Positions 33,001 to 57,390 of a stretch of DNA of 64,000 nucleotides are shown here, in pieces (the stretch's first letter is position 1; each line of letters starts with the position of its first letter). The notes beneath the pieces were generated by a model, which saw nothing but the letters and a program-made list of their open reading frames with translations, had not been told where the DNA came from and searched no databases. Made by a program: the position numbers and the translations under genes. The DNA comes from Candidatus Spyradenecus sp. (GTDB lineage Bacteria > Verrucomicrobiota > Kiritimatiellia > RFP12 > DVOR01), in NCBI GenBank assembly GCA_051884775.1, contig JBJEVY010000058.1, positions 2,655 through 66,654 on the forward strand. Reading direction: 5' to 3'.

Positions 33001-36000
33001 GACCCTGCCCACGACGATTGCGCTGGAGAGCGGCACGGTCCTGACGGTCACCGCGAGCTTCTCGGGGGCCTACACCATCCCCAGCGGTGCCACGGTCGTG
33101 CTCGATGGCACCACGGCCATCACTTCGGCTAGCGCCCTGACGGTGAATGGCGCGCTCAAGACCCAGGGCACGGTCACCCTCTCCGGGGCGAATGCGGTTC
33201 CGGCGGGCGGCACGCTCACGGTCGAGACCGGCACGCTGACGCTAACGGCAAGCGATCGGAGTCTTGCAGGTACCGTCAATATTGCTGCGGGGGCCACTTT
33301 GGTCAATGTGACGGGCGATGCGCTGAAGTATGATGGCTCGCCGGTGGTGAATGTGCGCGGCACGCTCGACATGCGCTCGACGCGTTGGACGGTCGGTAGC
33401 GCCAACACGCTGAATGTCTACGCCGGAGCGACCATCCAGGGCGCGGGCGATTCGCATGGCGCCTTGGACTTCTACAACAGCGCCACGCACACGCTCAATG
33501 TGCCCAACGAGGGGGATGCCTCTCAGCCTGTCACCATTTCGGCCAAGCTGCGGTTGCGGCAGTCGGGCGTTACCCTCAAGTTCAATATCGCCCTTGGGAG
33601 TGCCAAGGTTAACCTCACGGGCATTGTGCGCGATGTCGGCAGCCTGGAGAAGGCCGGCTCGGGCTCTTCGCGCCTGATTCTCTCGGGCGAGAATAAGGTT
33701 TACACCGGCGCCACGACGGTCACAACTGGCTACTTGGACCTGGTGGGCGGGTGCACGCTCGCCACCTCTGGGGTGACGGTTGCCAGCGGCGCGGCGGTTA
33801 CCTTCCAGGCCGACGACGCTTCCACCGAGACCACCTACACCACGCCCTTCGCCCTCACCGGGCGGATGGATAAGGAGGGCGCGCACAGCGTCATCCTCTC
33901 CGGGGCCATCACGGGCGCAGGGGCGGTGAATGTGAAGAACGGCGGCCTCACGCTCGATGCCTCGGCCGCCACGGCAGAGGCCCCGACTGCGGTGGCCAAC
34001 CCGATTGCCGTGGGTCTGGATAGCGGCACCGCCGGCACGCTCACGGCTAAGGGCTTCCTTACCCTCTCGAATGCCTCCAATACGGTGAAGGCCACCGGCA
34101 CGCTCGCCATCGCCTCGGGCACGACCGTCCTCACCACCGCGGGTTCCGCTGGCGGCATCAAGGGCAAGCTTGCCATCGCCTCGGGCGCAACGCTCCAGTG
34201 CGGCATCGATGATGCGCCGGATTACAACGGCTCCCCGAGCTTCGAGATTGCCGGTACCCTGGAGATCACCGGCACTGCCCGTTGGTCCATCCCCAGTGGA
34301 GCGACCGTCACCCTGCACGAGGGTGCCCTGCTGAAGGGCACGGGCCCCGAGAGTGGCAGTAACTACGCCTTCGACTTCTTCGATGGTGGTGCCATTACCG
34401 CTGATGGCAACGCGACCATTGAGGCCACTGTGGGAGCCCATAAAGCCGGCCAAACGCTGACACTCACCCAGACGGCTGAGACGATGACAACAATCACGGG
34501 CGAAGTGCGTAATTCGACGACCCTGAAGGCCGCCGGCACCGGAACGGTGGTCTACGCCCCTGCTGCTGGGGTGGCGGCCACCTCCTCGCCGTTGGTTGTG
34601 GATACAGGCGCGACCTTGCAACTCTTGCCCGCTGCCGCCTTCACCCTCAATGGCACGGTGACGGGGGCGGGGACGCTGATGGTTGGCAATGGCACGGCGG
34701 CGACGGCGGTAACGTTGGCGGTGGCGGGCAATGGCGCGAATGTCACGGTCTCGCCCAAGGCCTCGCTGACGGTGGCGACCGGCGCCGGAAGCGAGGACGC
34801 GAACAAGTCCTTCGCCGATGGGAAGACGGTCACGAATAATGGCACGCTAACGCTGACCTCTGGCTATGGCTACTTCAATATTGCCGGCACCGGCAAGACG
34901 GTGGTGCCTGGTAGCGACTTCCTCTTCGGGATTGGCGGCGCGAGTGCCGAGACGCCCTTCTCGAATGGTCTGGAGGTGCCCGCTTCGGCAAACTTCCGCA
35001 TCCGCCCGTGGAATCGGAATTGGACGCTTATCGCCATGGGTACGGCGGCGGTGAATGGCTCGGTATCCGTGGATGGTGGCGATCACACGGTGACGCTCCA
35101 GATCGCGGCGGATACGACCCTCACAGGCTCGAGTACCTTCGCCATCCCGGTGGCCTTTGAGAATGCGGCCACGGCCACGATGGCTTCGGACGCGACCTTC
35201 ACCTTCTCGAACGCCCTCACGGTGCCGAAGAATGTCACGCTTCCGGGCACGGTGACCCTGGGCGAGAATGCGGTGCTCTCCGGCGCGGGTGAACTTTCGG
35301 GCACGGTGACGCTGAGCGCGGGCGTGATTATCAACGCGACCGAGTCGACCGCCTCGGGCTATCTCAAGTTGACGGGCACGGTGACCTTGGGCGACACGCT
35401 GAAGGTCAGGGCCGCCAAGCTGACGAATGTGCTCGATGTGCCGACCGCTGCCGGGTTAGACCTCGCAAAGGTCTCGCTGACGGACGATAGCACCGTCCCG
35501 ACAGGCGCCAAGCTGATGACCTCGGTCTTTACAACGGAAAGCACCTCGGTAACGACCCTGAAGTTCTTTGTCCCGCCGATGGTGCCGGAAGCGCCCGCCG
35601 AGAGTCCGCGCGAGGCTGACGTGGATACGCAGATTGCTCAGGCCGCAGAGACCTACGCCGGGTGGGGGATGGTCATCTCCGAGGTGACCGCAATCACCGG
35701 CACGGGCTCCGATGGCACCGGCACGCGCGAGATTAACGGGGCCTCGCTCTTCGAGAATGTCCTCACCCTGGCTCCTGCAGCAGTGAAGGATGATGGCACC
35801 TACACCGCCACGGCGACGGTTGCCTACGACTTCGGCTTAAGCGCGATGACGGTGAAGTCGGCGCAGTTGGGAAGTGACACCGCCGCGCGGAACTATGTGG
35901 TGCTTTGCGCGAAGGTCTCTAACGGCACCGACACGGGCGATAGCGCGGCAGACTATGGCACCACGACCACTGTCTCGCTCCTGCTCGGCGGCAAGGTCTG

Positions 36001-36175
36001 CGACGGCACCGCGGGGAATGGTCCTGCGGCGACGGAACTCACCGACGAACAGTTGACGGCCCTGGGCCTTACGCGCGGCAAGGGCGAGAAGTGGTTCGCC
36101 GTGCCGATGGCCGACTTGGCAACTGGCACGAGTGCCTTCACCGTGCGTGCTTCGCAGACGACCGCCACCCCTTAA
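30044..36175 (+). CDS. Giant secreted protein with autotransporter-associated beta-strand (PATR) repeats and an N-terminal LamG-like region
   Basis: Signal peptide MRTITRLALAALAAVCASSTLVAAPA. Recurrent K(L/Y/A)G(A/S)G(T/S)L.L(S/T)G motifs (KYGAGTLVLSG, KLGAGTLSLTG, KAGSGSSRLILSG). The composition is T/G/A/S-rich and beta-helix-like. I see no beta-barrel or sorting-signal motif at the C-terminus. Confidence 0.85.
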   Translation: MRTITRLALAALAAVCASSTLVAAPAASWTNFGGGITNDDGTITYYGGNTAYAATAHGSRQTDGSVLLTEGGIEIVLPSAQAQVSVIVDMSAPPETGDYDILAVDTGTYTMAARSKSRTLNLLYITNSNSNETDRTSNGGTAVWGDAERRWVTMTHQNNLNGTSVYLDDAAAAPNDSGLRWSSQSISKVKIGAAGQKIYAIYLYTTRLTQADIATARAENTAALAVPLSFTFSRAGLTSAGNTMEVLQVGGGAAKGLTFTATLGTNATRVTEGSETDETAFFKSVTSGSTLLTTNGYPMVQCKFSTTGSKDNEGWSIYLPFTPSAETTVTRVCPQLFAVNASGNVQSDSKVFGYTVTLYSGSVDETTVSSATALATATGTTDSLTQTLVNTQAAAFADKVTLNADTAYTMKLAVSDSSTGGGSYSGIGGVVFSSVIGRTVSGEGTWSNDWTAGSAPADGSAVELTVSDAATLSMDAAASLSSLTVLDGSADSSASLTFSGEQSLTSSATTLNVSTDVSAITASLGAVTLAGGKTLTVGKSSSIVSLSGTGGTVSVDATAESIAYDATATMLEIYRTYGGKVIFKGANANGVTLPYAIGKGTMAAKFAFDGGTHTFQYGVNSSQVLFGPQGTDADPTLDILDGATLNFCTKDLSGWTPQTNAEKVILRVRAGSTLNFTQYSSNTAYFNNRIVLDNNATVNIQNTNGNFRVNGGVRAEGTAQLAMLGGETETAADVTGNNITLASDQTPKGMGVSVGENATLTIANAIVGNSGCTFAKYGAGTLVLSGTFTASPITVAAGVLGFSVASGERTVGVNISGSGTVKKLGAGTLSLTGTVSTPVEVAEGTLDLGTQRSLTLGGIAEGATLKLTATDVELANCAITFSTTMGTAPAKERFTVVKADGTAVTLTAEPTVADGTLTVTLPQSGGMITATGNWSEAGVSGETVVYVRGGESAESAITVTLDADLSGYTQIAVIGHVKFVTTETQATLPTTIALESGTVLTVTASFSGAYTIPSGATVVLDGTTAITSASALTVNGALKTQGTVTLSGANAVPAGGTLTVETGTLTLTASDRSLAGTVNIAAGATLVNVTGDALKYDGSPVVNVRGTLDMRSTRWTVGSANTLNVYAGATIQGAGDSHGALDFYNSATHTLNVPNEGDASQPVTISAKLRLRQSGVTLKFNIALGSAKVNLTGIVRDVGSLEKAGSGSSRLILSGENKVYTGATTVTTGYLDLVGGCTLATSGVTVASGAAVTFQADDASTETTYTTPFALTGRMDKEGAHSVILSGAITGAGAVNVKNGGLTLDASAATAEAPTAVANPIAVGLDSGTAGTLTAKGFLTLSNASNTVKATGTLAIASGTTVLTTAGSAGGIKGKLAIASGATLQCGIDDAPDYNGSPSFEIAGTLEITGTARWSIPSGATVTLHEGALLKGTGPESGSNYAFDFFDGGAITADGNATIEATVGAHKAGQTLTLTQTAETMTTITGEVRNSTTLKAAGTGTVVYAPAAGVAATSSPLVVDTGATLQLLPAAAFTLNGTVTGAGTLMVGNGTAATAVTLAVAGNGANVTVSPKASLTVATGAGSEDANKSFADGKTVTNNGTLTLTSGYGYFNIAGTGKTVVPGSDFLFGIGGASAETPFSNGLEVPASANFRIRPWNRNWTLIAMGTAAVNGSVSVDGGDHTVTLQIAADTTLTGSSTFAIPVAFENAATATMASDATFTFSNALTVPKNVTLPGTVTLGENAVLSGAGELSGTVTLSAGVIINATESTASGYLKLTGTVTLGDTLKVRAAKLTNVLDVPTAAGLDLAKVSLTDDSTVPTGAKLMTSVFTTESTSVTTLKFFVPPMVPEAPAESPREADVDTQIAQAAETYAGWGMVISEVTAITGTGSDGTGTREINGASLFENVLTLAPAAVKDDGTYTATATVAYDFGLSAMTVKSAQLGSDTAARNYVVLCAKVSNGTDTGDSAADYGTTTTVSLLLGGKVCDGTAGNGPAATELTDEQLTALGLTRGKGEKWFAVPMADLATGTSAFTVRASQTTATP

Positions 36176-43972: not shown

Positions 43973-44629
43973 TTACTGTTGGGGCTTGCGGGCGGAGAGG
44001 CGGTTCATTACGGCGCGGGCGATGAAGTATTGCGCGAGGATGAAGGCGAGGAAGAAGGCGCCGATGATGGTCAGGACGAGGAGGGGGTGGTGCTGCCAGA
44101 GGCCTTTGAGCCAGGCGATGAGCGGGGCGTAGCACTTGGGCATAAAGAAGGTGATAATCGAGCTCTGGAAGAGGCAGGAGAGGGCGGAGAAGAGGGTGTA
44201 TTGGCCGAAGTGGACGCGGAGCATCCCGGCGGCGAGGAGGGCGGGGGTGCGGATGCCGGGGGTGAAGCGGATGATGAAGAGGGTCTTGCCGAGGTGGCGG
44301 TCGAAGAAGTGTCCGCAGGCCTCGATTTGGTCTTGGTGTTTGCGGACCCAACGGATCTTGGCCACGTAGCGCATGGCGAAGCGCACGGGCAGGTACATGA
44401 GGATGTCGCCGACAAAGACGCCCCAGAAGGTGCTTTGCAGGGCGGTCATCCAACCGAGGATGCCTTCAGAGAGGAGGGGCGGGACGATGGTCCAGCAGAC
44501 GATGTTCTCGAAGAAGAAGGTGGCCACGGCGGTGAACCAGCCTTGGAGCCAGGGGTGCTCGGCGGAGGCGAGGATGGCATCGGTGAGGGCCGAGAGGTCG
44601 ACAGGGGCCATGGAGAGGAGGGCGATCAC
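43973..44629 (-). CDS. DedA/VTT-domain membrane protein
   Basis: 218 aa. ...FFENIVCWTIVPPLL...GDILMYLPVRF...FFDRHLGKTLFIIRFTPGIRTPALLAAG... is a DedA-like pattern. Confidence 0.7.
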   Translation of the reverse strand: MIALLSMAPVDLSALTDAILASAEHPWLQGWFTAVATFFFENIVCWTIVPPLLSEGILGWMTALQSTFWGVFVGDILMYLPVRFAMRYVAKIRWVRKHQDQIEACGHFFDRHLGKTLFIIRFTPGIRTPALLAAGMLRVHFGQYTLFSALSCLFQSSIITFFMPKCYAPLIAWLKGLWQHHPLLVLTIIGAFFLAFILAQYFIARAVMNRLSARKPQQ

Positions 44630-46449
44630 GGGGTATCCTCCGGGAGGGGCTTATCGGCGCTGAGGCCGAGGTAGTGGCCGATTTCTTCGGCAACGGCGGC
44701 AAAGGTGGGGGCAGCAACGAAGCCGCCTTCGCGGTTGCCGCCTTGGGGGCGCTCGATGGTGACGAGGATGACGAGCTCGGGGGCGGAGGCGGGATAGATG
44801 CCGATGAAGGTGGCGTTGAAGTCGGTGCGGTTGTAGTGGCCGTTGACGGGGATTTGGCCGGTGCCGGTTTTGCCGGCGACGGTGTAGGAGCGGAGCTTGG
44901 CGCGGCGGGCGGTGCCGCGTTGCTTCGGATCGGTGATGCCGCTCATCATCTCCATCACGCTGGCGCAGACCTCGGGGGAGAGGGGTTGGCCGATGACTTC
45001 GGGCTTGTTTTGGCGGATGACTTCGCCCTCGTGGGTGCGCAGCTCGCGGAAGATGGTTGGGCGCATATGCACGCCGCCGTTGGCGATGGTGGCGTAGGCG
45101 CTGACGAGCTGGATGGCGGTGACGGCGACGCCTTGGCCGAGGGGGATGCGGGTGGGGGAGAGCTTGCTCCACTTGGAGTAGTGCGGGAGGATGCCCGATT
45201 GCTCGCCCACCAACTCAATGCCGGTCTTTTCGCCGAAGCCGAGGGCGCGGAAGGCGCGCCAGAGGAACTCGTATTCGTGCTTGATGCCGAGCTTGGGCTG
45301 CGGTTCGGCCATGCGCAGGCCAATCATCGCGGTGCCGATGTTGGAGGATTGGAGGATGATTTCGCGGGCGTGGAGGATGCCGGTGGCGTGGTCGCGCAAG
45401 GGCTTGCCGGCGTAGTACCAGATGCGCTTGGTGCCCACGTCGAAGGGGGTGCGCTCGGTGATGAGGCCGTAGTTGAGGGCCATGGCGATGGTCAGAGGTT
45501 TCATCACCGACCCGGGCTCGTAGTTCCGCGCGATGGCGATGTTTTGCCACTCGCTGGCGTTGAAGGAGCGATACTCGGCGGGATTGAAGCACGGCAGGGT
45601 GGCCATCCCCAGGATCTCGCCGCTCTTGATGTGCTGGACGATGACGATGCCGGACTTGGCCTGGAACTCCTCGAGGGTCTTGGCGAGGGCCTTTTCGATG
45701 ATGTACTGGATGTTGTTATCGATGGTCAGGACCACATCGTGGCCGTGCTCGGCCTTCTTTTCGCTGATACGGCGGGTACGGATCTCGCGGGCCCGGTTGT
45801 CGCGCACCGAGACGACCTCCCCGTTCTGCCCGCGCAAGAGCTCGTCGAAGCGCTGCTCAATGCCGTAGATGCCGTTGTTGTCCTTGTCGATGAAGCCGAT
45901 GACGTGGCTGAGGCGCGCGCCGTTGGGGTAGGAGCGGATGGGGCGCAGGTCGCGGAAGTTGATGCCGGCGATGCGGTTGCTCGGCGCCACGCTCCGGGCT
46001 GAACGCTCGCGTAGTTCGGTCAGGATCGCTTCATCGGCCACCTCGCAGACCTTCACGCTGCTGCGCTTGAGGCCGTTGATGATATGCTCGCCGGTAAAGG
46101 CGTCGATCATCTTCTCTTGGCTGACCCCCAGCAACTTGGCCAGCTCCAGGGGCAACTCGGCCACGCGCTCGGGCGGCAGAAGCTTGAGTTTGACGTCCTT
46201 CTGGTCCACATAGATGTCGCGCCCGGCAATGGTCTCGGCCAGGACATTTCCATTGCGGTCCAGAATCCGCCCGCGCAGCCCGGGCAGGGTGAACTTGGTG
46301 GCGTAGTCCGGCGCCTCATAGTCGGGCGCGCTCGGTTCAATGATATGGAGCTTGATGAGCTTGGCAAAGATGAGGCCAAAGAAAAGCACCATGGCGCTCA
46401 AGATGAGCGCCATCCATCGCCGGGCATACTGCAGCTCGCTGCGAACCAT
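44626..46449 (-). CDS. ftsI: Peptidoglycan D,D-transpeptidase FtsI (class B PBP)
   Basis: N-terminal TM. SxxK (GSVMKP), SxN (SSNIG) and KTG (GKTGTG) motifs. Its position is after ftsL. Confidence 0.9.
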   Translation of the reverse strand: MVRSELQYARRWMALILSAMVLFFGLIFAKLIKLHIIEPSAPDYEAPDYATKFTLPGLRGRILDRNGNVLAETIAGRDIYVDQKDVKLKLLPPERVAELPLELAKLLGVSQEKMIDAFTGEHIINGLKRSSVKVCEVADEAILTELRERSARSVAPSNRIAGINFRDLRPIRSYPNGARLSHVIGFIDKDNNGIYGIEQRFDELLRGQNGEVVSVRDNRAREIRTRRISEKKAEHGHDVVLTIDNNIQYIIEKALAKTLEEFQAKSGIVIVQHIKSGEILGMATLPCFNPAEYRSFNASEWQNIAIARNYEPGSVMKPLTIAMALNYGLITERTPFDVGTKRIWYYAGKPLRDHATGILHAREIILQSSNIGTAMIGLRMAEPQPKLGIKHEYEFLWRAFRALGFGEKTGIELVGEQSGILPHYSKWSKLSPTRIPLGQGVAVTAIQLVSAYATIANGGVHMRPTIFRELRTHEGEVIRQNKPEVIGQPLSPEVCASVMEMMSGITDPKQRGTARRAKLRSYTVAGKTGTGQIPVNGHYNRTDFNATFIGIYPASAPELVILVTIERPQGGNREGGFVAAPTFAAVAEEIGHYLGLSADKPLPEDTP

Positions 46450-46471
46450 TAGGCCTCGGGGCTAAGCGGGG

Positions 46472-46882
46472 TCAGCGGCGGTTCCGGACTTGGGCGCGGT
46501 CGCCGCTCTGCTGGTGCTCCTGCTTGGCAATCTCAAGGGCGCGGTAGACCGGCCGGGAGAGCTTGAATTGGCCATTGGGGAGCACCACGGCCGTGCGCTC
46601 GGGCGGGGCATAGGCCAGGCGCAGTCCGCGCGAAGCCATCGCCTCATCCAACCGCCGCGGCTCGGCGAGTTGGTTCCACTCGGCCTCCTGCCGGCGGCGC
46701 GTCTCGTTCAGCGCGCGCTTCTCGCGCTCTAGGAGGCGGATTTGCGAGCCCACCTGGTCGGTGTGCATCAAGAGCAGGGAGTAGACAATCCAGGGGGCGA
46801 CGATGAAGGCAATCAGCGTTGCCAGCCCCAAGGTTGCCGCCTTCATCCGAAAGGTTTTGCACCGTCTGTTTCGCTTTGCCAT
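46472..46882 (-). CDS. ftsL: Cell division protein FtsL-like
   Basis: Small bitopic protein (TM LGLATLIAFIVAPWIVYSLLL followed by a coiled coil) sited between rsmH and ftsI. Confidence 0.7.
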   Translation of the reverse strand: MAKRNRRCKTFRMKAATLGLATLIAFIVAPWIVYSLLLMHTDQVGSQIRLLEREKRALNETRRRQEAEWNQLAEPRRLDEAMASRGLRLAYAPPERTAVVLPNGQFKLSRPVYRALEIAKQEHQQSGDRAQVRNRR

Positions 46883-46886
46883 AGCC

Positions 46887-47828
46887 CTATGCCTCCTCTA
46901 CCAACTTCTCCACCACGCGCAGTTTCGCCGTCCGCGCGCGGGGGTTTGCCTCAATTTCTGCCGGTTGCCCGGTCACCGCCTTCTTGAAAATCGCCTGCGT
47001 GCGCGGCAGTTCGCCCTGCCACTCACTGCCGCCCTGCTGGAGCGCCACCTCGCGCCCGCAATGGGCCCGGAAGCGCTGCTTCACCACCCGGTCGGTCAGA
47101 CTCTCGAAGGTGATAATCGCCAAGCGTCCGCCGGGCTTGAGCAGCCGCAACCCGCCCTCGAGCGCCCGCTCCAAGTCCCCCATCTCGTCATTGACCGCCA
47201 TGCGCAGCGCCTGGAAGACGCGCGTGGCCGGGTTTCGCCCCTTCGTGTGCGCGGAGCCGACCGCCCGGGCCACCACCTCGGCCAACTGCAGCGTCCGCGT
47301 GATGGGCGCCCGATTGCGCTCGCGCTCGATGGCCTTGGCAATCGTAAAAGCGCGCCGCTCCTCGCCCAGGGTTCGAAAGAGTTCGCACATCTCCGGGACC
47401 GAGAGGCGCGCGATTAGCTCGGCGGCCGTCTCCCCGGCATCGTTGCGCATTCGCATATCCAGCGGCCCATCGTTGCGGAAAGAGAAGCCGCGCTCGGGCG
47501 TATCCAGCTGGTCGCTGCTCACCCCCAGGTCCAGCAAAATGGCATCCACCTGCGCAAAGCCGTTGGCCTTGGCCAGGGCCTCGATGTCGCCGTGGGCCCC
47601 CTGCACCAGCACATGCTCGCCGGGCACGCCCTCGCGCGCCAGGTTTGCGCGCGCGCGTTCAAGCGCCTCGGGGTCGCGATCAATTCCCAGGAGCCGACCG
47701 GTGGCCCCGGCGCGGCGCATCACCGCGCTCGCGTGGCCGGCCTGACCGAGCGTGCCATCGATATAGACGCACCCCGGGCGTGGCGCCAGGGCCGCGATCG
47801 TCTCCTCAAGCAACACGGGAATATGCAT
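46887..47828 (-). CDS. rsmH: 16S rRNA (cytosine1402-N4)-methyltransferase RsmH
   Basis: MHIPVLLEETIAAL...YIDGTLGQAGHA...LLDLGVSSDQLD...GFSF... Confidence 0.95.
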   Translation of the reverse strand: MHIPVLLEETIAALAPRPGCVYIDGTLGQAGHASAVMRRAGATGRLLGIDRDPEALERARANLAREGVPGEHVLVQGAHGDIEALAKANGFAQVDAILLDLGVSSDQLDTPERGFSFRNDGPLDMRMRNDAGETAAELIARLSVPEMCELFRTLGEERRAFTIAKAIERERNRAPITRTLQLAEVVARAVGSAHTKGRNPATRVFQALRMAVNDEMGDLERALEGGLRLLKPGGRLAIITFESLTDRVVKQRFRAHCGREVALQQGGSEWQGELPRTQAIFKKAVTGQPAEIEANPRARTAKLRVVEKLVEEA

Positions 47829-47840
47829 CGCCCACCTCCG

Positions 47841-48287
47841 CTAGAAGTCCAGTGCCGCCAACGCCTCGCTCAATGCCGCCTGGTCCACCGCAGCCTCCTG
47901 CGGCCGCGCCTCGGCAGCCCAAATCTCGCCATAAGTAATTGCCCCCACAAAGGCAATCTTCCCCGTAATCCCCGCAAAGTTCAGCAAGCGGTCGCTAATC
48001 CGGATGCGCCCCTGCACATCCAGCGGCAACTGCTCGGTGTTCTGCCCCAGCACCCGCAGCTTCTGCGCCACCAACGGGTCCGAAAAGCGCTTGCCCAGCA
48101 ACTTCTCCCGCAACCCCTGCATCCGCTCATTGCTCAAGAGCCGCAGACACTTCTCGTGTGGATCGGCCATCACAAAGACATAGGCCGGCTTCCCCAACGC
48201 ATCGCGCCAGCCCGAAGGAATCGTCACGCGCCGCTTGGGATCCAACGCATGCTGCGCCACGCCCGATAAGACGGCGTCGCCTTGCAT
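47841..48287 (-). CDS. mraZ: Transcriptional regulator MraZ
   Basis: Two SpoVT/AbrB-like repeats (LDPKRRVTIPSGWR and LDVQGRIRISDRL). Start set to Met-11 of the track ORF (MQGDAVLSG...), which is preceded by gaggtg. Confidence 0.9.
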   Translation of the reverse strand: MQGDAVLSGVAQHALDPKRRVTIPSGWRDALGKPAYVFVMADPHEKCLRLLSNERMQGLREKLLGKRFSDPLVAQKLRVLGQNTEQLPLDVQGRIRISDRLLNFAGITGKIAFVGAITYGEIWAAEARPQEAAVDQAALSEALAALDF

Positions 48288-48332
48288 CGTTTTCACCTCG
48301 TTCTCTGTCTCTTTCACGGCTGACCTTTTGTG

Positions 48333-49254: not shown

Positions 49255-51714
49255 ATGAGACGGTTATTGGATTGGTATTGGCAGGAAGGTAAGGAGCGGC
49301 CTAAGGTATGGCGGTTGCCGGAGGTCGGTGTTGGGCAGATGATGGAGGCTGTGCGAATTTTTGAGCAGGTGACAAAGGCGCGGGGGGAGATGCAGAGGGG
49401 ATGTGTGGCCTTTTGGGGGCCATCGCAGGCCGGGAAGTCATCACTACTCTCGCATTATTTAGATGCGATGGATGCTCAGGGGAGTGCGTTGACGTGGCAT
49501 GCGGGGGAGAGGGTACGTTTTTCGGCAGACCCGTTGGGGGTCGACCGGGAGGGGGTGGTCTTCAATCCTTTTCGTGGGGGAATGGATGCCTCGGCGGTGG
49601 TGACGCGCTTCTATCTGCCAACAGATCCAGAGGTTGTGAAGCCGGAGGCGCCGGTGGAGGTGGTGCTGGCGGAACGCCAACAAGTGTTGCACGCGTTGGC
49701 GTTGGGTTATCACCTGGAGTGCCGTCGCACAGACATGGCGTGGGATTCAATAACCTTGCGCGAGCGATTGGCCGAGCCAAGCGTAAAGGCAGATCGCGAG
49801 GCCTTTGAGCTGCTCTACGAGGTGTGCGAAATCTGCGAGGCGCTGGAGCCGGAACTCTCGCGTTTTGCCGCCTTCCGGGAACGGGCGACGATACGCCGGC
49901 GCATCCTCTCTTCAAACTATGTGGATGATGTGCAGCAGGCGTGGGCGCTGGCGAAGTGGTTGCTGTGGGATGGAAACGAGCAAATCTCGGCGCTGTTGGA
50001 ACGGCTACTGCAGATGCGCGCTTCGTTGGTGGAGACCTTTTTGGGTCCGGGGCGGCGGCTCTTCGTTTCGATGCGGGTGGCTGCGTTACTGGAGGATATT
50101 GGGGTGATGGAGTTTGCCGCAAGCGGTTCGGCGCCGGCGGCGGGGTGGGCGCCGGGCGGCGCGACGGAGATACAGGGCAAGGCAAAGGATTTGCTGTCTC
50201 TGCAAATGGTTAAGCACGAGTCGGGGGCCTACCTCTTCGTCGATGGAGAGATGTCTACCGGAGGCGAATCCAGTCGTTTTGAGGCGCGCTATTTTGGGCT
50301 CTTGCAGGCGCTGGTTGGGGAGATGCGCATACCTGTCCGCCCGATGTTGAACGAGGTAGCCAAGCCCTTTCTTTCTTTTCTGGAGCGCTTTAATCTGCTG
50401 GATATTCCTGGCGTGACGAACAAGGCAACAGGCGATGCGCAGGGGAGCGGTAATCTCTTGGACCTGAGCGAGGTAATTGAGGAGACCGTGTTGCTACGGC
50501 GGGTTTACAAGTCAGGCAAGACCTTGGCGGTGGTACACGGCCAGGCGGCGCAGGGCTCAATCGACAGCTTTGTGGTTTTTGTGGACCTGGAACACGCGGG
50601 GGGGCTGCCGCGCCCGGGAACATTGACCAACGGGATTAAGGCATGGCTGAGGCCCTTCGGCGGGGAGGGTTTCTCGCCGCCGTTGCCCTTGCCGCTCTAT
50701 CTGAACTGCTCGCTCTTCGGGAAGTTGCAGGATAAGGTGGCTGCAGCTATGCAGAGTGGCGGGCTGCAGGATTACTGCCGCAAGGCGGAGGCGCTGGAGT
50801 TCGTCAAGCGTGGCTGCGCAGAGGTCGTCTTCACCTCGTCGTGCTTTGTGCCGTGGCAGAATGCCGGGGTCAAGGCGATGCTGGAGGCGGACGCAAGCTT
50901 CCGGCAATGCTTTCTGCGCGGCCGGGCCGAGGAGTCGCTCAATGCGGTTGTGGGCGACGGGCTGGGGACGGACTATCTCTTCGAGCGCCTGGCGCGAGAG
51001 GTTTCACCCCAGAGGCGCTGGGAACACTATGGCCGGATCGAGGCGCAGTGCCGCGAGACCTTGCGGCGCATCGTTGCGCAACAGTTGCCTTCGGGCAGCG
51101 GCGAGCGGGCCTTGGCCTGTCGCGAGGCCGTCCGCCAGGTGCTCGCCCGGCTCCAGGCTATGGGCCTCTCGCCGGAGAATGGCGAGGTAACGAAGCAGCT
51201 CTCAGATTTCATCAAGCGGGTCTTCGTGGTTGACGCGACGGAACTGGAGCCCTTGCCGACGCAGCCACATCTGCTCTCGGGCGGGGAGCTAAAGCAGTAT
51301 CTCATGCGGCAGGTTGTCGCGTGGGTCGGTCAACGCAAGGCGATGCTCTCCGGGGATGTTGCGGTGACCTGGTTATTAGGCGAAGCGCAACTGCCTCTCT
51401 TCTTGCAAGCGGTGGCGACGATCGATCAGGAGCGTTGGGCCCGGTGGTTGCAGGAAGTTTTCTGGCAGCACAATCCGAAGGTTTCTCGCGTCTTCCTAGC
51501 AATGGCGCTGAATAACGCCTTTTTGTGGGGGGACTACGCCCGCAAGCGTGCGGCGATGGGCCAGGGGAGTGCCTACGAGATGCTCTGTGCACCCTTTGTT
51601 GCGCGTTTGGAGCAGTTGGCTCAGTGCACACCAGTGCAGGCGGACGGCCGCCCAACAACGTTGCCCGGCGATGCTAGCCTGGCGGCGCTCCAGGGGACGT
51701 TGGGGTTGAAGTAA
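49255..51714 (+). CDS. Gene A: P-loop NTPase with dynamin-type G1/G2/G3 motifs (SrfC-like?)
   Basis: 819 aa. G1 is FWGPSQAGKSSLLS (aa 53-66), the switch-I-like motif is SAVVTRFYL (aa 113-121), and G3 is FNLLDIPGVTNKATGD (aa 379-394). These are followed by TLAVVHG and FVVFVDLEH strands. The C-terminal ~370 aa are helical. Confidence 0.6.
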   Translation: MRRLLDWYWQEGKERPKVWRLPEVGVGQMMEAVRIFEQVTKARGEMQRGCVAFWGPSQAGKSSLLSHYLDAMDAQGSALTWHAGERVRFSADPLGVDREGVVFNPFRGGMDASAVVTRFYLPTDPEVVKPEAPVEVVLAERQQVLHALALGYHLECRRTDMAWDSITLRERLAEPSVKADREAFELLYEVCEICEALEPELSRFAAFRERATIRRRILSSNYVDDVQQAWALAKWLLWDGNEQISALLERLLQMRASLVETFLGPGRRLFVSMRVAALLEDIGVMEFAASGSAPAAGWAPGGATEIQGKAKDLLSLQMVKHESGAYLFVDGEMSTGGESSRFEARYFGLLQALVGEMRIPVRPMLNEVAKPFLSFLERFNLLDIPGVTNKATGDAQGSGNLLDLSEVIEETVLLRRVYKSGKTLAVVHGQAAQGSIDSFVVFVDLEHAGGLPRPGTLTNGIKAWLRPFGGEGFSPPLPLPLYLNCSLFGKLQDKVAAAMQSGGLQDYCRKAEALEFVKRGCAEVVFTSSCFVPWQNAGVKAMLEADASFRQCFLRGRAEESLNAVVGDGLGTDYLFERLAREVSPQRRWEHYGRIEAQCRETLRRIVAQQLPSGSGERALACREAVRQVLARLQAMGLSPENGEVTKQLSDFIKRVFVVDATELEPLPTQPHLLSGGELKQYLMRQVVAWVGQRKAMLSGDVAVTWLLGEAQLPLFLQAVATIDQERWARWLQEVFWQHNPKVSRVFLAMALNNAFLWGDYARKRAAMGQGSAYEMLCAPFVARLEQLAQCTPVQADGRPTTLPGDASLAALQGTLGLK

Positions 51715-51730
51715 TAGCAAGGAGAAGATT

Positions 51731-54574
51731 ATGATTGAATTTGATTGGGAGCCAACGGTCCTGAGCAATACGGGGTGCCAATTCCGTTTCTTCCCGGTGT
51801 GCATGTTCAGGTCGCCAAGTAGTGACTTGCCAGACTTGGCCAAGGCGGAGGTGCTGTGGGATGACATAGCGGGATTTCAGGAGCGCCACCAAACATTTGC
51901 GCGCAGCGAGGCGTTTGCCGACTATCTGACTTCGACGGTGATGAGCACGCTCGCCGCAAAGCGTTGGAGCGCTTGGCCAGAGTGCCCATTCTTGAAGGTT
52001 CGCTGGACGAGTAAGCGCTTCACCCATCACGGTGAGTACGAGTTCCTCGGCGTGGAGTTGGCCATCGAAACGCTTTCGCCAGGCGATGCCTTCCAGCAAT
52101 GCGGATTTTGCTACAAAGAAGAGGCGCTCCAGGACGATCGACGTGCGCACGCCGCACCCTTCGCCTCCATCTACCAATCGATTCGCGATGGAGCATACTA
52201 TCCGCCAACGGGAACGGCCCCCCTTCTCCTCAAACTGGACGATGTCGTCGCCGTCAATATACGCGTGGGCTTTTTGCAGCAAACGACGGCCTCTGGGCCG
52301 CTGGGAGCGCACTTGGTCATCGATATCGGTAACACGCGCACCTGCGCGTTGCTGTTGCGAGACGATCCTTCCGGGATGCTGGACCGGGTGGATGCCATTC
52401 GCAGTTGCTGCACGCCGGTGATGCTTGATCTGCCAATGCGCGCAGAAGCCGTTACGCGAGCCAATTTACGGGATGTGGACAACGGCATTGCCTCGTCATG
52501 GATTCTTCTCCATCAGCCGGAGTTCGATGAGGCGACCCCCTCGTTGTTGCAAGGGCGCTACGTAATTGAGAGCGTGAAGCACACGCCAGAGCGGCGGTGG
52601 TCGTTCAGAAAGGTCACAGATGAACTGCGCAATACGCGCGTGGAGTGGCGTGTACCAACAATGTTTGTGCGTAACTCGCCAGTCTTGCTGGGGCGTGAGG
52701 CTGGGCAGCAACTTTCACTCAAGACTGTGGCCACGATGATTGAGGAGGGACTGCAGATTCAGCAGAGTTCACCCAAACGCTACTTCGCTGAACAGCAGCG
52801 TACCCAACAGGATTGGAGCATGGTGCCCAATCCCTGGGAGGACCGGAGCACGACCTCTGCCTCCAAACTACAGGCAGACCTGCTTTACTGGATGAGTGAA
52901 CGCGGAGAATTCGTGGATCCCGACGAGACAGCCGTGCAGAACCGTCCGCTTAAGGCTCCGCCCCACCCGAACTATCCGCGCTCAGCCACCTTCATCTGGC
53001 TGCTGGTGGGTATTTTGGAGCGCGCGTGGGACCAGTGCAATCGGTTGAAGTCTGCTGCCGGTAAGTTTGTTCCTTACGAACTGCGCAATGTGATGGTCAC
53101 CTTTCCCTCGGGCTGGACGCGCGATGAGGTGCAGCTCTACCGCAAGCGTTGCGAGGAAGCGGTCCGCCTCTTTGCACGTAGCAATTTCCCCAAAGGGACG
53201 GAGATCCATCTAAATATGGATGTGGACGAAGCGGTGGCCAGCCAATTGCCCTATGTATTCTCCGAAATCCACAAGTTTAATGATAACGCGCAGCAGTGGC
53301 TGGCCCTGGCCGGCAAGTGCCGCGAGGGTGACGATCCAGGATTTCGCGTGATGAACCTGGACATCGGCGGGGGCACAAGCGACATCTCAGTGGTGGAATA
53401 CACCTGCCTGCCGAGCGACGACGGGCGCGGGGATGTGGATCTGCAGCCTACGCTCCTCTTTCGCGATGGCTATGCCTCGGCCGGCGATGACCTGGCACGG
53501 CAGATCCTCTCGCAAATCATCTTCCCAGCAATTGAGAGCGTGGCCGCGCAGGAAGGGGCCGAGTTAAAGCGCTACTTCACTGGGGCGGCCACTTCGCCAG
53601 AACTGTGCACCCGACGCGCTAAGATGTTGCGCCTGTGCTTGCTGCCGCTGGTCTACTGCATCCTCGGAGCCATCGCCTCCGGGGCTCCGGAGGGTACCAT
53701 CACGTTGGAACGCGCAGGCATCGAGCCTGCCCTCTGGGATGAGCTCTATCGCTATCTCTACCCGACGGAGGATGTTGTGCCAGGTTCTTGGCAGCAGATT
53801 GTCGGTGTTGGCGGGCCCGGGCTAGCCTATGATGCTCAGGCTGTTAACCGCCTGATCGTCGCTCAGTTTCAACGGACCTTTGAGAATGTGGCCCTCATCG
53901 CCGCACGGCAGGATGTCGACCTCTTCCTGATGAGTGGCAAGACCTCCGAGCTGCCCATTCTGCACGAGATGGCCATCGAGGTGCTGCCGTTGACCCAGGA
54001 GCGCATCATCGCCACGCGCCACTATTGCGCCGGCGATTGGTACCCCTTCGTCAAGACCGACGGTTATGGGCGGATTGTCGACAACACCATCAAGGATGCC
54101 AAGAGCATCACGGCCGTGGGCGCTGCCCTGAACTTCTTGCTCGCCAACGAGATGGTCTATGGCTGGAAGATCGAGAAACCGCGCGTCGTTCCGGCCATCG
54201 AGAGCGAGTGGGGCTTCAACGAGCAGTTCAAGCGCCCCAACGGCCAGGCCTTCCGCTTCGATGCACAGGGGCAGGTCACCGTGCCGGTACGGCCGCGTTT
54301 GGATCTCATCGCCCGCCGTTTCGCCAAGGGCGCCACCCCTTCGGCGGTCTATTGCATCCAGTCGCGGGATCCCGATGCTCCGGCACAGAACATCCGTCTG
54401 AAGGCCACGCTTCGTCGCGGCCGCGATGAAGAGACCCAGGCCGAGTTCCTGGAACTGGTCGCCCTGACCGAGCACACCCCGCAGGGTGAGCGTGACTGTC
54501 TGCACGCCTTCGAGCTGGCCGTCTGTCAACAGGAAGGCGACTTCTGGCAGGATACCGGCCGCGTGATTGATTGA
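51731..54574 (+). CDS. Gene B: large Hsp70/actin-fold ATPase (SrfB-like?)
   Basis: 947 aa. Phosphate-1 is LVIDIGNTRTCALLL (D198), phosphate-2 is VMNLDIGGGTSDISVVEY (D544), and the adenosine motif is VDLFLMSGKTSELPIL. RBS aaggag lies 7 nt upstream, and the gap to gene A is 16 nt. Confidence 0.65.
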   Translation: MIEFDWEPTVLSNTGCQFRFFPVCMFRSPSSDLPDLAKAEVLWDDIAGFQERHQTFARSEAFADYLTSTVMSTLAAKRWSAWPECPFLKVRWTSKRFTHHGEYEFLGVELAIETLSPGDAFQQCGFCYKEEALQDDRRAHAAPFASIYQSIRDGAYYPPTGTAPLLLKLDDVVAVNIRVGFLQQTTASGPLGAHLVIDIGNTRTCALLLRDDPSGMLDRVDAIRSCCTPVMLDLPMRAEAVTRANLRDVDNGIASSWILLHQPEFDEATPSLLQGRYVIESVKHTPERRWSFRKVTDELRNTRVEWRVPTMFVRNSPVLLGREAGQQLSLKTVATMIEEGLQIQQSSPKRYFAEQQRTQQDWSMVPNPWEDRSTTSASKLQADLLYWMSERGEFVDPDETAVQNRPLKAPPHPNYPRSATFIWLLVGILERAWDQCNRLKSAAGKFVPYELRNVMVTFPSGWTRDEVQLYRKRCEEAVRLFARSNFPKGTEIHLNMDVDEAVASQLPYVFSEIHKFNDNAQQWLALAGKCREGDDPGFRVMNLDIGGGTSDISVVEYTCLPSDDGRGDVDLQPTLLFRDGYASAGDDLARQILSQIIFPAIESVAAQEGAELKRYFTGAATSPELCTRRAKMLRLCLLPLVYCILGAIASGAPEGTITLERAGIEPALWDELYRYLYPTEDVVPGSWQQIVGVGGPGLAYDAQAVNRLIVAQFQRTFENVALIAARQDVDLFLMSGKTSELPILHEMAIEVLPLTQERIIATRHYCAGDWYPFVKTDGYGRIVDNTIKDAKSITAVGAALNFLLANEMVYGWKIEKPRVVPAIESEWGFNEQFKRPNGQAFRFDAQGQVTVPVRPRLDLIARRFAKGATPSAVYCIQSRDPDAPAQNIRLKATLRRGRDEETQAEFLELVALTEHTPQGERDCLHAFELAVCQQEGDFWQDTGRVID

Positions 54575-54595
54575 CTAACCGAAAGGAGATAGACA

Positions 54596-55828
54596 ATGGA
54601 GACCTTTGCCCCTTTTTCCCCCATAAGCACCCCCGTTCCCCCGAGTCTGCAAGGGCAGGATGGCGAGCGTGAGGTGCCGCCGATGTACCCGGTGGCCTTC
54701 GTGCCAGCCCCGGTCCAACCCATCGCCCCTGCATCGGCCCCTGTACCGGCTCCGGCGGCGGAGCCCCTGCCGCCTGCAGCCGTGGAGGCTGCGCCCCAGG
54801 TGGAGACCGTGCCGACGGCGGCGGACGCTGCGGCCGAGGCCAATGCGGAGATCGAGTGTCTGAAGGCGCAGTTGGCCGAGGCGCAGAAACAGTGTGCGGA
54901 TGCCGAGGCCCGGATGCAGAAGGCCTGCGAGCACCAACAGGCATTGAAGAAGGCTTATGCCGAGGAACTCGATCGTTGCCGGGTGGATTGCGAAGCACAG
55001 ATGAAGCAGCACGTCGAGGACCTCCTCCGTTGCAAGCGGCTGGGCATTGAAGATCCCGAGTTCATTCAGGACTTCTTCGAGCGCTATGCGCAGATGGTAC
55101 GGGCCGAGCGCGAGCGAGACAAGGCGGCTTGCGAGCGTGACAAACTCCAGGCTCAGTTAGAGGAGAAGGACCAAGAACTGCAGCGGCAGAGCGCGCAATA
55201 CAAGCAAGCGGAACGGCAGAATCTGACCTTGCGAGAAGAGGCAGAAAAACTGCGCCAATCCTTGGAACTTCAGACGCACACAGTGACCCAAGAGCGTAAC
55301 GCACGTCTGAGCGCAGAGGCCAAAGTTCAAACAACCCGTCAGCAATTGGAGGAATTGAGGCGTAAGCAGGGCGGTTGGGAAGCGCTGTATGCCACGTTGT
55401 TCCAAGAGGGCTGGGGTGACTGTCGGGAGGTCGCGGCATTGGGCGATGCGCTCTCTGGGAAGATGACCGCCGGGGGGGAGTTGGACCCTCTGGCGCTTCA
55501 GGCCGCGCTTGCACTGGCCGCTTGGCGCGCGATGGTACTGGCCGTTGAGGTCCCTAACCGCATTGCCCTGTGTCATCTGGAGTTGCTCGGGCGGCAATTG
55601 GCGCAGTTCTGGAATGCCGCCCCTGTACTCCTTGAGCGCCTAGCCCAGGTCCTCAACGGCTGCGAGCTGATGCGTAAGCAGGAGATTCGCCTAGAGGTGC
55701 CGGCGATAGACAGCGAGGTCGATACCTCCAAGGTTATACACCGGCAGAATGGTACCTATGTCAAGAAGGTGCTTGTCTGGGGGATTGTTCATAAGGGTAA
55801 ACGCCACCTCAAGGCAGAGGTCGAGTAA
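54596..55828 (+). CDS. Gene C: Pro-rich N-terminus, long coiled coil and GrpE-like C-terminal domain
   Basis: 410 aa. Residues 1-75 are P/A/V-rich, and residues ~80-260 have a heptad-rich E/Q/K/R/A composition. The C-terminus ...EVPAIDSEVDTSKVIHRQNGTYVKKVLVWGIVHKGKRHLKAEVE resembles the GrpE beta-domain ending (...V..V.QKGY.L.GR.LRPA.V.V). Confidence 0.5.
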   Translation: METFAPFSPISTPVPPSLQGQDGEREVPPMYPVAFVPAPVQPIAPASAPVPAPAAEPLPPAAVEAAPQVETVPTAADAAAEANAEIECLKAQLAEAQKQCADAEARMQKACEHQQALKKAYAEELDRCRVDCEAQMKQHVEDLLRCKRLGIEDPEFIQDFFERYAQMVRAERERDKAACERDKLQAQLEEKDQELQRQSAQYKQAERQNLTLREEAEKLRQSLELQTHTVTQERNARLSAEAKVQTTRQQLEELRRKQGGWEALYATLFQEGWGDCREVAALGDALSGKMTAGGELDPLALQAALALAAWRAMVLAVEVPNRIALCHLELLGRQLAQFWNAAPVLLERLAQVLNGCELMRKQEIRLEVPAIDSEVDTSKVIHRQNGTYVKKVLVWGIVHKGKRHLKAEVE

Positions 55829-55831
55829 GCG

Positions 55832-57373
55832 ATGGTGGAAGCCCCGTACCCGTGCGAGATCGCACTTGTTGATGGTCGGCGGTTACTCCGTTGCGGCTTG
55901 CAGAGCTATGTCGATTATCCTTTCCCGGCGCTGTTGCAATCGCTGAACGAGGAGATTGCCCCCGCCTCGCCGCTCTTTCCGTTCCTGACGATCTTGCCTG
56001 GCACGCCTGAAAAACTCCGTTACGCTCTCGCGCGCGCCGGTGTCGCCGAACATTCCTCTCTGCGCAATCGCGCCTTGCCGAGGGCGTGTCTGCGCCAACT
56101 CCAGGAGGCAATCAATCGCCTCCACGCCTGGGCGGAGGATCCGCAGGTACCGGGCGGTACGCAGGATTTCTGCCGCAATTTCGCATTGCCCGACCCTGTA
56201 CTCGACCCGGAGGCCTACCAACTCTCCCGTGGTCCAGGCGGCTGGCGGGTACATGTCCTCTGGGGTTATGAGAGCGATGAGGCGCCTGCCATCAAGCCCC
56301 TCTCCGCCCTCTCCGCCCATTGGGCGGATAGCGCCGATCGTGTCGCTTTGGCCGAGCGTTTCCGCAAGGCGCGGCCGCGGTTCGTCCTGCCGTGGCGAGC
56401 CTGCGTGCGCCGTCTGTTTGTGTGCCTGCTCATCCTTTTCCTCGGAAGCAGACTGTGGCATTATGCCTCGGAGTGCGTGGAGGGCATGGAGCGACTCCGC
56501 GCTTATCGGGCGAGCGCATTGGTGTGCCTGGAGGCTATGCAGCAGTCGCTCAATGAGACCCAGGCGGAGCTGGCTGCGGCGCAGTCCCGTTGCGAGGCTC
56601 AGCAACGAGATCTGGAGGCTGCGCACTCCCGACAACAGGAGGCCGAGGCACGCGTTGCGACCTTGCAGGGCGAACATACGGCCTTGCAACAGCAATGCAT
56701 AGGTCTGGAGCGAAATCTGGAGGCTGCGCGTTTCCAGCGGCAAGCGGCCGAGGCGCGCGCAACGACCTTGTTGAAAGATCAAGAGGCTATAAGAAACAAT
56801 GTCTCTGAACTGCAAGACAAACTTACCTTGGCGCAAACCGGCCAGCAAGATGCCGAGATGCGTGTCGTTATGTTGCAAGCCGAATGCGATTCGCTGCGTG
56901 AGGAGCTCTCGCAGATTAAATCTGGCCAAAGGAGTATGGTTAAGCAAGTTCGCGATGCGTTAGACAAATGTGAATCGTTACAACATAAATGCGATGTGCT
57001 ACAAGACGCGCTTACCTCTACGCAGTCTAGCCAGCAAGAAGCCGAGACGCAGGTGACCACCTTAAAGGGTGAGCTCAACGCATTGAAGACGCAATACGCC
57101 AAACAGGTGCGTCTCGGTAAGCTGTGGCACACAAAGGCAACGCAATTGGAGCAACAGAACAAACAACTCCAAGACCTCAAGGCGCGGCATCAAGCCCTGG
57201 AAGATAATCTGAAACAAGAACGGCAACAATCTGAACTCTACCGTCGGATTTGTGTAGGACTGATTGATACACTTCGACGTGCAGATCCTAATCTTCCAGA
57301 GGTGAAAAACTTGCAGGAAATCGATGCCTATCTCTCCAAACGAGATGAACGTTGGTGGAAGCTGTGGAAGTAG
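55832..57373 (+). CDS. Gene D: single-pass membrane protein with an N-terminal domain shared with gene E plus a 35-residue-repeat coiled coil
   Basis: 513 aa. A basic stretch then a TM segment (RFRKARPRFVLPWRACVRRLFVCLLILFLGSRLW). Repeats are LEAAHSRQQEAEARVATLQGE, LEAARFQRQAAEARATTLLKD, LTLAQTGQQDAEMRVVMLQAE and LTSTQSSQQEAETQVTTLKGE. The gap to gene C is 3 nt. Confidence 0.6.
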   Translation: MVEAPYPCEIALVDGRRLLRCGLQSYVDYPFPALLQSLNEEIAPASPLFPFLTILPGTPEKLRYALARAGVAEHSSLRNRALPRACLRQLQEAINRLHAWAEDPQVPGGTQDFCRNFALPDPVLDPEAYQLSRGPGGWRVHVLWGYESDEAPAIKPLSALSAHWADSADRVALAERFRKARPRFVLPWRACVRRLFVCLLILFLGSRLWHYASECVEGMERLRAYRASALVCLEAMQQSLNETQAELAAAQSRCEAQQRDLEAAHSRQQEAEARVATLQGEHTALQQQCIGLERNLEAARFQRQAAEARATTLLKDQEAIRNNVSELQDKLTLAQTGQQDAEMRVVMLQAECDSLREELSQIKSGQRSMVKQVRDALDKCESLQHKCDVLQDALTSTQSSQQEAETQVTTLKGELNALKTQYAKQVRLGKLWHTKATQLEQQNKQLQDLKARHQALEDNLKQERQQSELYRRICVGLIDTLRRADPNLPEVKNLQEIDAYLSKRDERWWKLWK

Positions 57374-57390
57374 CTGGAAGGAGCAACGAG

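Follow-up and report, generated by a model that had tools for sequence, protein, structure and literature searches.

We analyzed a window of 64,000 nucleotides (nt), meaning the whole stretch of DNA under study, from Candidatus Spyradenecus sp. (contig JBJEVY010000058.1), and we concentrated on gene A, the first of five consecutive genes that are called A to E here (Table 1). Judged by profile comparison, the product of gene A is a divergent SrfC family protein (PF10139), and its predicted fold is the topology of a TRAFAC GTPase followed by a stalk, as in dynamin-like proteins. The explanation that accounts best for the data as a whole, and that we regard as probable, is a divergent SrfC of dynamin architecture, of a type found in the Planctomycetes-Verrucomicrobia-Chlamydiae (PVC) superphylum, which works with an Hsp70-like SrfB (gene B) at SrfA-like membrane anchors (genes D and E). 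Automated annotation already assigns genes A and B to the SrfC and SrfB families, and gene A is a divergent member of a known family. In the literature searched we did not find a published account of a dynamin fold for SrfC, of an Hsp70 fold for SrfB, or of a PVC-wide variant with a degenerate G4 motif, nor a description of a prokaryotic dynamin-Hsp70 pairing of this kind.

Motifs and SrfC family membership of gene A

The open reading frame (ORF) of gene A is the longest one at its site. It starts with an ATG that has GAAAGAGG close upstream and ends with a stop codon at 51712-51714, and its homologues share the same start Met. Amino acids (aa) 55-66 (nt 49417-49452) read GPSQAGKSSLLS and contain the G1 motif, aa 114-121 form the switch-I-like segment AVVTRFYL, aa 381-394 read LLDIPGVTNKATGD and contain G3, and aa 439-447 read FVVFVDLEH. 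The six-frame translation of the window contains 4 Walker-A matches in total. Conservation was scored in a MAFFT alignment of 182 sequences, made up of gene A, its homologues from two large protein searches and four canonical SrfC proteins. K61, D383 and G386 are found in all 182 family members; G55, G60, S62 and P385 in 181, S57 in 180 and Q58 in 173. At position 117, 175/182 sequences have T or S, and 174/182 have R118; an invariant N104-P105 pair precedes the switch-I-like segment. Because they are nearly invariant across the 182 members, the G1 motif, the switch-I Thr and the G3 motif of gene A are real and not chance matches. The initial annotation, which had been made from the letters of the stretch, placed these three motifs in this order with about 260 residues between switch I and G3; the ORF and the motif positions hold, with 266 residues from T117 to D383.

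The same annotation had proposed an atypical member of the dynamin superfamily or a SrfC-like protein, and both halves of that proposal are borne out by profile and model comparisons. The PF10139 (Virul_Fac, SrfC) profile of Pfam matches gene A with 33.4 bits against a gathering cut-off of 28.1 (E 2e-8). The match is confined to aa 46-198, corresponding to profile positions 41-183 of 878, and nearly all homologues of gene A carry a precomputed PF10139 match. As canonical reference we took the plasmid-borne SrfC of Cereibacter sphaeroides (AXQ95977), which matches PF10139 from end to end (E 5e-298); the other canonical proteins compared were SrfC family proteins of Rahnella, Methylobacterium and Haematospirillum. 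An hhalign comparison of the gene A family alignment with the full-length Cereibacter SrfC gave a probability of 99.2% (E 3e-19) over 468 columns, covering aa 45-593. This span takes in the P-loop, the VTRF switch, the entire intervening region, the DLLDxPG motif and a KxGK helix motif, and the C-terminal ~225 aa of gene A lie outside it. Since the homology extends beyond the P-loop, gene A is assigned on sequence grounds to SrfC as a divergent member. Identity is low: 16-18% to the four canonical proteins in the multiple alignment, and ~23% by BLASTP, which aligned a single 160-residue stretch. NCBIfam has no family for gene A or gene B, and it gave one sub-threshold kinase-family match for gene A.

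Gene A and canonical SrfC proteins have in common the GxSQxGKS P-loop, the N-P pair, the (V)TRF switch I, the DLLDxPG form of G3, the KxGK helix motif, a large insertion of 220-300 aa between switch I and G3, a helical C-terminal half and a gene that adjoins srfB. Here gene B (PF07520, E 2e-59) begins 17 nt past gene A. They differ in the G4 motif, which is TxFD in canonical SrfC and degraded to SLFG in gene A, and in gene order: instead of srfA-srfB-srfC we see C-B-coiled coil-D-E (that is, SrfC, SrfB, a coiled-coil gene and the SrfA-like genes), with no same-strand gene upstream of gene A. The clade to which gene A belongs is restricted to the PVC superphylum.

Table 1. Coordinates of gene A, its motifs and regions, and the downstream genes of the cluster (positions in the window).
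Feature	Position	Strand	Evidence
Gene A, SrfC-family large nucleoside triphosphatase (NTPase) of predicted dynamin fold, 819 aa	49255..51714	+	ORF, PF10139, hhalign, AlphaFold2 model and Foldseek
G1/P-loop, G55-P-S-Q-A-G-K-S62	49417..49440	+	Conservation; follows model strand 49-54
Switch-I-like AVVTRFYL (T117, R118), start of strand beta2	49594..49617	+	Conservation; model strand 116-120
SrfC-family insertion (~aa 134-376)	49654..50382	+	Secondary structure of the model; alignment with canonical SrfC
G3/switch II, LLD383-I-P-G386 VTNKATGD, end of strand beta3	50395..50436	+	Conservation; model strand 379-383
Degenerate G4 position, N484-C-S486-L-F-G489-K, end of strand beta5	50704..50724	+	Alignment with canonical SrfC; strand 481-486
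C-terminal all-helical, stalk-like region (aa 558-819)	50926..51711	+	Model helices 558-815; Foldseek alignments
Gene B, SrfB-family protein with predicted Hsp70-like fold, 947 aa	51731..54574	+	PF07520 E 2e-59; AlphaFold2; Foldseek
Gene C, coiled-coil protein (410 aa) with conserved ~70-aa C-terminal domain	54596..55828	+	Weak coiled-coil profile matches; jackhmmer
Gene D, SrfA-like N-domain (~1-160), one transmembrane helix (~188-208), C-terminal coiled coil	55832..57373	+	Hidden Markov model (HMM); hydropathy; coiled-coil profiles 233-494
Gene E, SrfA-like N-domain, one transmembrane helix (~220-245), beta-rich middle part, C-terminal trypsin-like protease	57352..59592	+	HMM; hydropathy; Trypsin_2

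Predicted fold, inserted domain and nucleotide preference

An AlphaFold2 model of gene A was built from a 26-sequence alignment, with a mean predicted local distance difference test score (pLDDT) of 86.5 and a predicted template-modelling score (pTM) of 0.78. After N-terminal helices (2-45), the model runs through beta1 (49-54), the P-loop, alpha1 (61-69) and beta2 (116-120, with T117); beyond the insertion follow beta3 (379-383, ending in D383), alpha2 (410-433), beta4 (438-444), alpha3 (454-468), beta5 (481-486), alpha4 (488-500), beta6 (523-526) and an all-helical part (558-815). G1, switch I and G3 are thus placed on beta1, beta2 and beta3 of one predicted P-loop fold with a strand order of the TRAFAC type, and this topology together with the Foldseek matches points to a single site. 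The features that characterize the dynamin superfamily, G1 GxxxxGK[ST], the switch-I Thr of G2 and the DxxG of G3, are each found in gene A at the predicted strand positions.

When the model was compared with the Protein Data Bank (PDB) by Foldseek, the best match was SynDLP (E 9e-7, probability 1.0). IniA, Cj-DLP1/2, MFN1/2, BDLP, EHD, Fzo1, Sey1p, dynamin, OPA1, MxA and Drp1 followed, and alignments with full-length SynDLP and BDLP covered ~900 columns. The top 26 matches all belong to the dynamin superfamily, with G-alpha and EngB among the weaker ones, and no AAA+ or ABC protein occurs among the PDB matches listed. The predicted G domain plus helical stalk is the arrangement of the bacterial dynamin-like proteins (DLPs) SynDLP (7zw6/9em7), IniA (6j72), Campylobacter DLP1/2 (5oxf) and Nostoc BDLP (2j69), and of mitofusins. 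The G1, G2 and G3 motifs are shared with dynamin-like proteins, and so are Ser and Gln in the P-loop (GPSQAGKS in gene A, GGQSAGKS in dynamin). In contrast to these proteins, gene A has no sequence-level match to them, no (N/T)KxD motif and no detected hydrophobic paddle or transmembrane segment, and its partner is an Hsp70-like protein, not a second DLP.

That the likeness of the motifs might be a coincidence, gene A being a P-loop ATPase of the AAA+, STAND or ABC type whose distant "G3" has nothing to do with the P-loop, is exceedingly improbable in our judgment. It draws on sub-threshold matches to AAA_22 (16.5 bits, cut-off 27) and AAA_16 (15.4 bits, cut-off 32.6) over the P-loop and on marginal matches to TnsC and ABC proteins (E 0.03-1.4), which are the only ones that the gene A family profile found among PDB sequences. 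However, these matches span ~30-60 residues around Walker A and lie far under the cut-offs, which no AAA+ or ABC family exceeds; the model has an antiparallel beta2 and a DxxG on beta3, which is TRAFAC topology; every significant Foldseek match is to the dynamin superfamily; and D383 and G386 are invariant. A separate phmmer search of PDB with gene A returned one match, which was judged to be due to chance.

The region between beta2 and beta3 sets gene A apart from dynamin, in which ~70 residues separate switch I and G3. The large domain that had been annotated inside the G domain is there, with a length of ~260 residues between the motifs, but it is not peculiar to gene A and characterizes the SrfC family as a whole. 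The T117-to-D383 distance ranges from 173 to 303 aa (median 264) in the 182 members and from 220 to 234 aa in the four canonical SrfC proteins. In the model the insertion consists of a helical bundle (141-263) and a mixed alpha/beta subdomain (268-376) with a low-confidence or disordered loop at 291-301. Because it can be aligned between the gene A clade and canonical SrfC, with W238 and E356 invariant in both the PVC clade and the canonical proteins, we conclude that the insertion is a functional domain that has been conserved and by which the SrfC family is defined. The codons of W238 and E356 lie at positions 49966 and 50320 of the window, and E356 belongs to the conserved strand GEMRIPV, a short distance ahead of G3; this Glu could be catalytic or structural. 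An insertion of such size at such a position is unusual among GTPase families, and the helical domain of G-alpha sits before switch I.

As the initial annotation had noted, gene A has no canonical (N/T)KxD G4 motif. Its proposal that FVVFVDLEH takes the equivalent position has to be dropped: this segment forms strand beta4 (438-444) of the model, and the G4 position is at the end of beta5, at S486-L-F-G489. This stretch is aligned with T-K/P/W/M-F-D of the four canonical SrfC proteins, so that gene A has SLFG after beta5 in place of the canonical TxFD. Of the 182 sequences, 169 have T or S at position 486, and at position 489 there are 133 with A or G and 3 with D. Read from the alignment, the PVC clade has lost the G4 Asp that recognizes guanine in classical GTPases and kept the catalytic residues of G1-G3. 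Since the latter are kept, hydrolysis is inferred to be retained, and the preference for the base may be a different one. Lacking the G4 Asp, the enzyme probably does without the classical reading of guanine, and it may use ATP or several nucleoside triphosphates.

We took seriously an alternative that has a somewhat less than even chance of being right, namely that gene A has a dynamin fold without being a GTPase: it would be an ATPase or an unspecific NTPase like the EHD proteins, or a nucleotide-bound scaffold for its Hsp70-like partner. The S-L-F-G at the G4 position, with Asp489 in 3/182 sequences versus T-x-F-D in the four canonical proteins, speaks for it, and so does the presence of EHD ATPases among the structural matches of gene A. 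The EHD ATPases (2qpt, 5mvf) share the dynamin fold and use ATP, and they set a precedent for a changed choice of nucleotide within that fold; they differ in that they keep a G4 of the NKxD type, carry an EH domain and have no inserted domain of the SrfC type. The version with a dead scaffold is opposed by the near-invariant Lys of G1, Thr/Ser of switch I and Asp/Gly of G3, which argue for hydrolysis. As for the change of nucleotide, the sequence by itself does not reveal base specificity, and guanine could be contacted by other residues.

Partner genes, distribution and neighborhood

Gene B, the SrfB-family protein, is Hsp70-like according to its AlphaFold2 model (pLDDT 88.8, pTM 0.91). The top 50 Foldseek matches of the model are all Hsp70 or Hsp110 proteins, among them DnaK (7kru, E 9e-14) and BiP and Hsp110 (E ~1e-13). 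The best template-modelling score (TM-score), 0.70, was obtained on a target that consists of the nucleotide-binding domain (NBD) only. The phosphate-1 and phosphate-2 motifs of the ASKHA superfamily, D198-x-G-N and D544-x-G-G-G-T-x-D, are invariant. Gene B has 23-27% identity to canonical SrfB. The Hsp70 assignment rests on the structure model because sequence comparison reached only the adenosine motif: a PDB sequence search with gene B found no match, and an hhalign comparison of the SrfB alignment with HscC (locus L064), with a probability of 38% over that motif, was rejected as a sequence-level link. Gene B thus resembles the Hsp70 family in its model matches to DnaK, BiP and Hsp110 and in the conserved phosphate motifs; it differs in its length of 947 aa, an extra N-terminal beta-rich domain, large insertions and the missing sequence-level match.

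Genes D and E are probable counterparts of SrfA: the architecture is alike and the profile evidence is suggestive. Canonical SrfA consists of an N-domain, a single transmembrane helix near residue 200 and a C-terminal domain, and it carries PDE..V.TFWGF in its N-domain at the position where the motif LPDP...(I/V)LWG, common to genes D and E, is found. The N-domains of genes D and E are matched by the HMM with E values of 1.6e-35 and 7.5e-46, respectively. When they were compared with canonical SrfA by hhalign, the probability was 5% for full-length sequences and 31% (E 5e-4, 119 columns) for trimmed domains; BLASTP of the two N-termini against canonical SrfA found no match. The protease domain of gene E was identified by the Pfam family Trypsin_2 (aa 555-715, E 1.7e-17), and an orthologue with 39% identity is present in locus L001. 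As listed, gene E begins with a TTG and shares 22 nt with the end of gene D (window 57352-57400). The true start is probably the ATG at 57391 or 57400, which is likelier because the orthologues align from about residue 14-17. Gene C, located between SrfB and the SrfA-like genes, has positional orthologues detected by jackhmmer right after SrfB in loci of the Kiritimatiellota type (L001, L002, L003 and L060). The sole part that it has in common with the post-SrfB gene of these four loci is aa 341-410 (window 55616-55825).

A distribution scan in which each species was represented by a single genome yielded 61 loci, in Kiritimatiellota, Verrucomicrobiota (Akkermansia, Opitutae, Chthoniobacterales and Prosthecobacter), Planctomycetota and Lentisphaerota, and in a few bins labelled otherwise. 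An SrfB-like gene is located directly downstream on the same strand in all 51 loci with enough sequence, and 30 of 31 loci contain a gene with an SrfA-like N-domain, often two in tandem. Trypsin-like protease fusions occur also in L001 and L009. The layout of the cluster is conserved across the PVC superphylum. At E <= 1e-3 the family profile matched 1,098 clusters (50% identity) among 1.84 billion representatives, and tblastn with gene A found no match in the phage and plasmid collections.

Other loci add some observations. In L001 (6899-9651), which comes from a metagenome-assembled genome (MAG) of Kiritimatiellota and is the closest locus in the genome collection, two same-strand genes are located directly upstream of the SrfC-like gene; one encodes a protein with response-regulator, SpoIIE phosphatase and HATPase_c_2 domains and the other a Kinase-PolyVal Ser/Thr kinase. 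Alphaproteobacterial srfABC loci (L063, 2747-3937; L065, 1-3805; L066, 2262-3788 and 10975-13746) are flanked by genes for trypsin-like serine proteases, TPR and vWA proteins, which suggests a conserved module larger than srfABC alone. On the Salmonella enterica plasmid NZ_CP110932 (L062, 8289-10432) two ORFs of 177 and 507 aa occupy the place past srfB at which srfC would be expected; this split region is probably a pseudogene, and the gene table of the plasmid has no coding sequence there.

In the window, the cluster is bordered by housekeeping genes. Part of a division/cell-wall (dcw) cluster (44626-48317, - strand) diverges from gene A, with mraZ at 47841-48317, rsmH (MraW) at 46887-47828 and a PBP3/FtsI-like transpeptidase gene at 44626-46449. 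Directly past the cluster, at 59866-63782 on the + strand, are sbcD (NF008206, E 2e-79) and a gene for an SbcC-like ATPase. The G+C content of the cluster (49255-59592) is ~0.59-0.60 versus 0.65-0.69 in the flanking dcw and sbcCD genes, and it falls to 0.52 in the intergenic region at 48.5-49.5 kb. The lower G+C of the cluster hints at horizontal acquisition. Elsewhere the window contains an ORF of 2043 aa (30044-36175, + strand).

Putative role of the cluster and significance

In the mechanism that we favor, the cytoplasmic N-domains of the SrfA-like proteins would bring both NTPases, the SrfC-like one and the Hsp70-like SrfB, to the inner membrane face. Recruitment by such anchors is suggested because hydrophobic segments are absent from gene A; none of its 19-residue windows has a Kyte-Doolittle mean >1.6. 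Nucleotide-driven dimerization or assembly of G domains, as in dynamin-like proteins, combined with the ATPase cycle of an Hsp70-like protein could then alter the oligomeric state or conformation of the anchors, and the altered anchors may control the extracytoplasmic modules, which here would be a coiled coil and a trypsin-like protease. An accessory function in envelope stress or conflict is in keeping with the patchy distribution of the cluster, its lower G+C and its variable effector ends.

Several points weigh against this explanation. All the interaction and membrane steps in it are inferred, and in the literature searched we found no study on the mechanism of any Srf protein. The assignment of genes D and E as SrfA-like is statistically weak (hhalign probability 5-31%). 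For gene A, Pfam Dynamin_N and MMR_HSR1 gave no match at E <= 0.1, and no dynamin-like protein turned up in PDB searches with its sequence (phmmer) or with its profile. The (N/T)KxD motif is not present, and no membrane-binding paddle was found. The global TM-scores of the model to dynamin-like proteins are 0.13-0.23 with a large root-mean-square deviation, and the structural match rests on local 3Di similarity; low global TM-scores are expected for hinged multidomain proteins.

Two other roles have been weighed. The five genes could form an anti-phage or conflict system in which the dynamin-like and Hsp70-like NTPases sense an insult to the envelope and unleash the protease and coiled-coil effectors. 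The occurrence of the cluster is patchy across PVC MAGs, and its G+C is below that of its flanks; a conserved N-terminal adaptor is fused to variable C-termini, often in tandem paralogues; related loci carry genes for proteases and for vWA, TPR, Kinase-PolyVal and SpoIIE-type proteins; and the protease domain of gene E weakly matches RT-Protease_XI of PADLOC. We nevertheless consider such a system unlikely, as genes A and B have no PADLOC-DB v2 family at E <= 0.1, the matches of genes C and D are coiled-coil noise, no copy was found in the phage or plasmid collections, and the neighbors in the window (dcw and sbcCD) are housekeeping genes. The second role is a host-directed SrfABC toxin. SrfABC of Xenorhabdus, when expressed in Escherichia coli, reportedly had a cytotoxic effect on insect and mammalian cells (PMC6950479), and genes A and B fall in the same Pfam families. 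For the PVC cluster this role is very unlikely: gene A has no predicted transmembrane segment, the folds of A and B are those of cytoplasmic NTPases and the SrfA-like proteins are membrane-anchored. Furthermore, many of the hosts are free-living or gut PVC bacteria, and the similarity to the canonical proteins is low (~23% over 160 residues for A, 23-27% for B).

A wider generalization can be put forward, which we offer tentatively and would not yet expect to hold in full. Operons of the SrfABC type may constitute one membrane machine, consisting of a dynamin-fold SrfC, an Hsp70-fold SrfB and a single-pass SrfA adaptor with exchangeable extracytoplasmic effectors, and the window would then contain a PVC variant without guanine-specific recognition that is coupled to a trypsin-like protease. 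SrfA, SrfB and SrfC are orphan genes known since 2000 and are annotated as "virulence factors" in thousands of genomes. The findings described here argue against a literal reading of that label in non-pathogens. A deeply divergent form of the Srf system has been conserved in Kiritimatiellota, in Verrucomicrobiota, Akkermansia MAGs among them, in Planctomycetota and in Lentisphaerota. For this widespread orphan system the locus provides hypotheses on the nucleotide preference after loss of the G4 Asp, on recruitment by SrfA-like proteins and on the control of a periplasmic protease.

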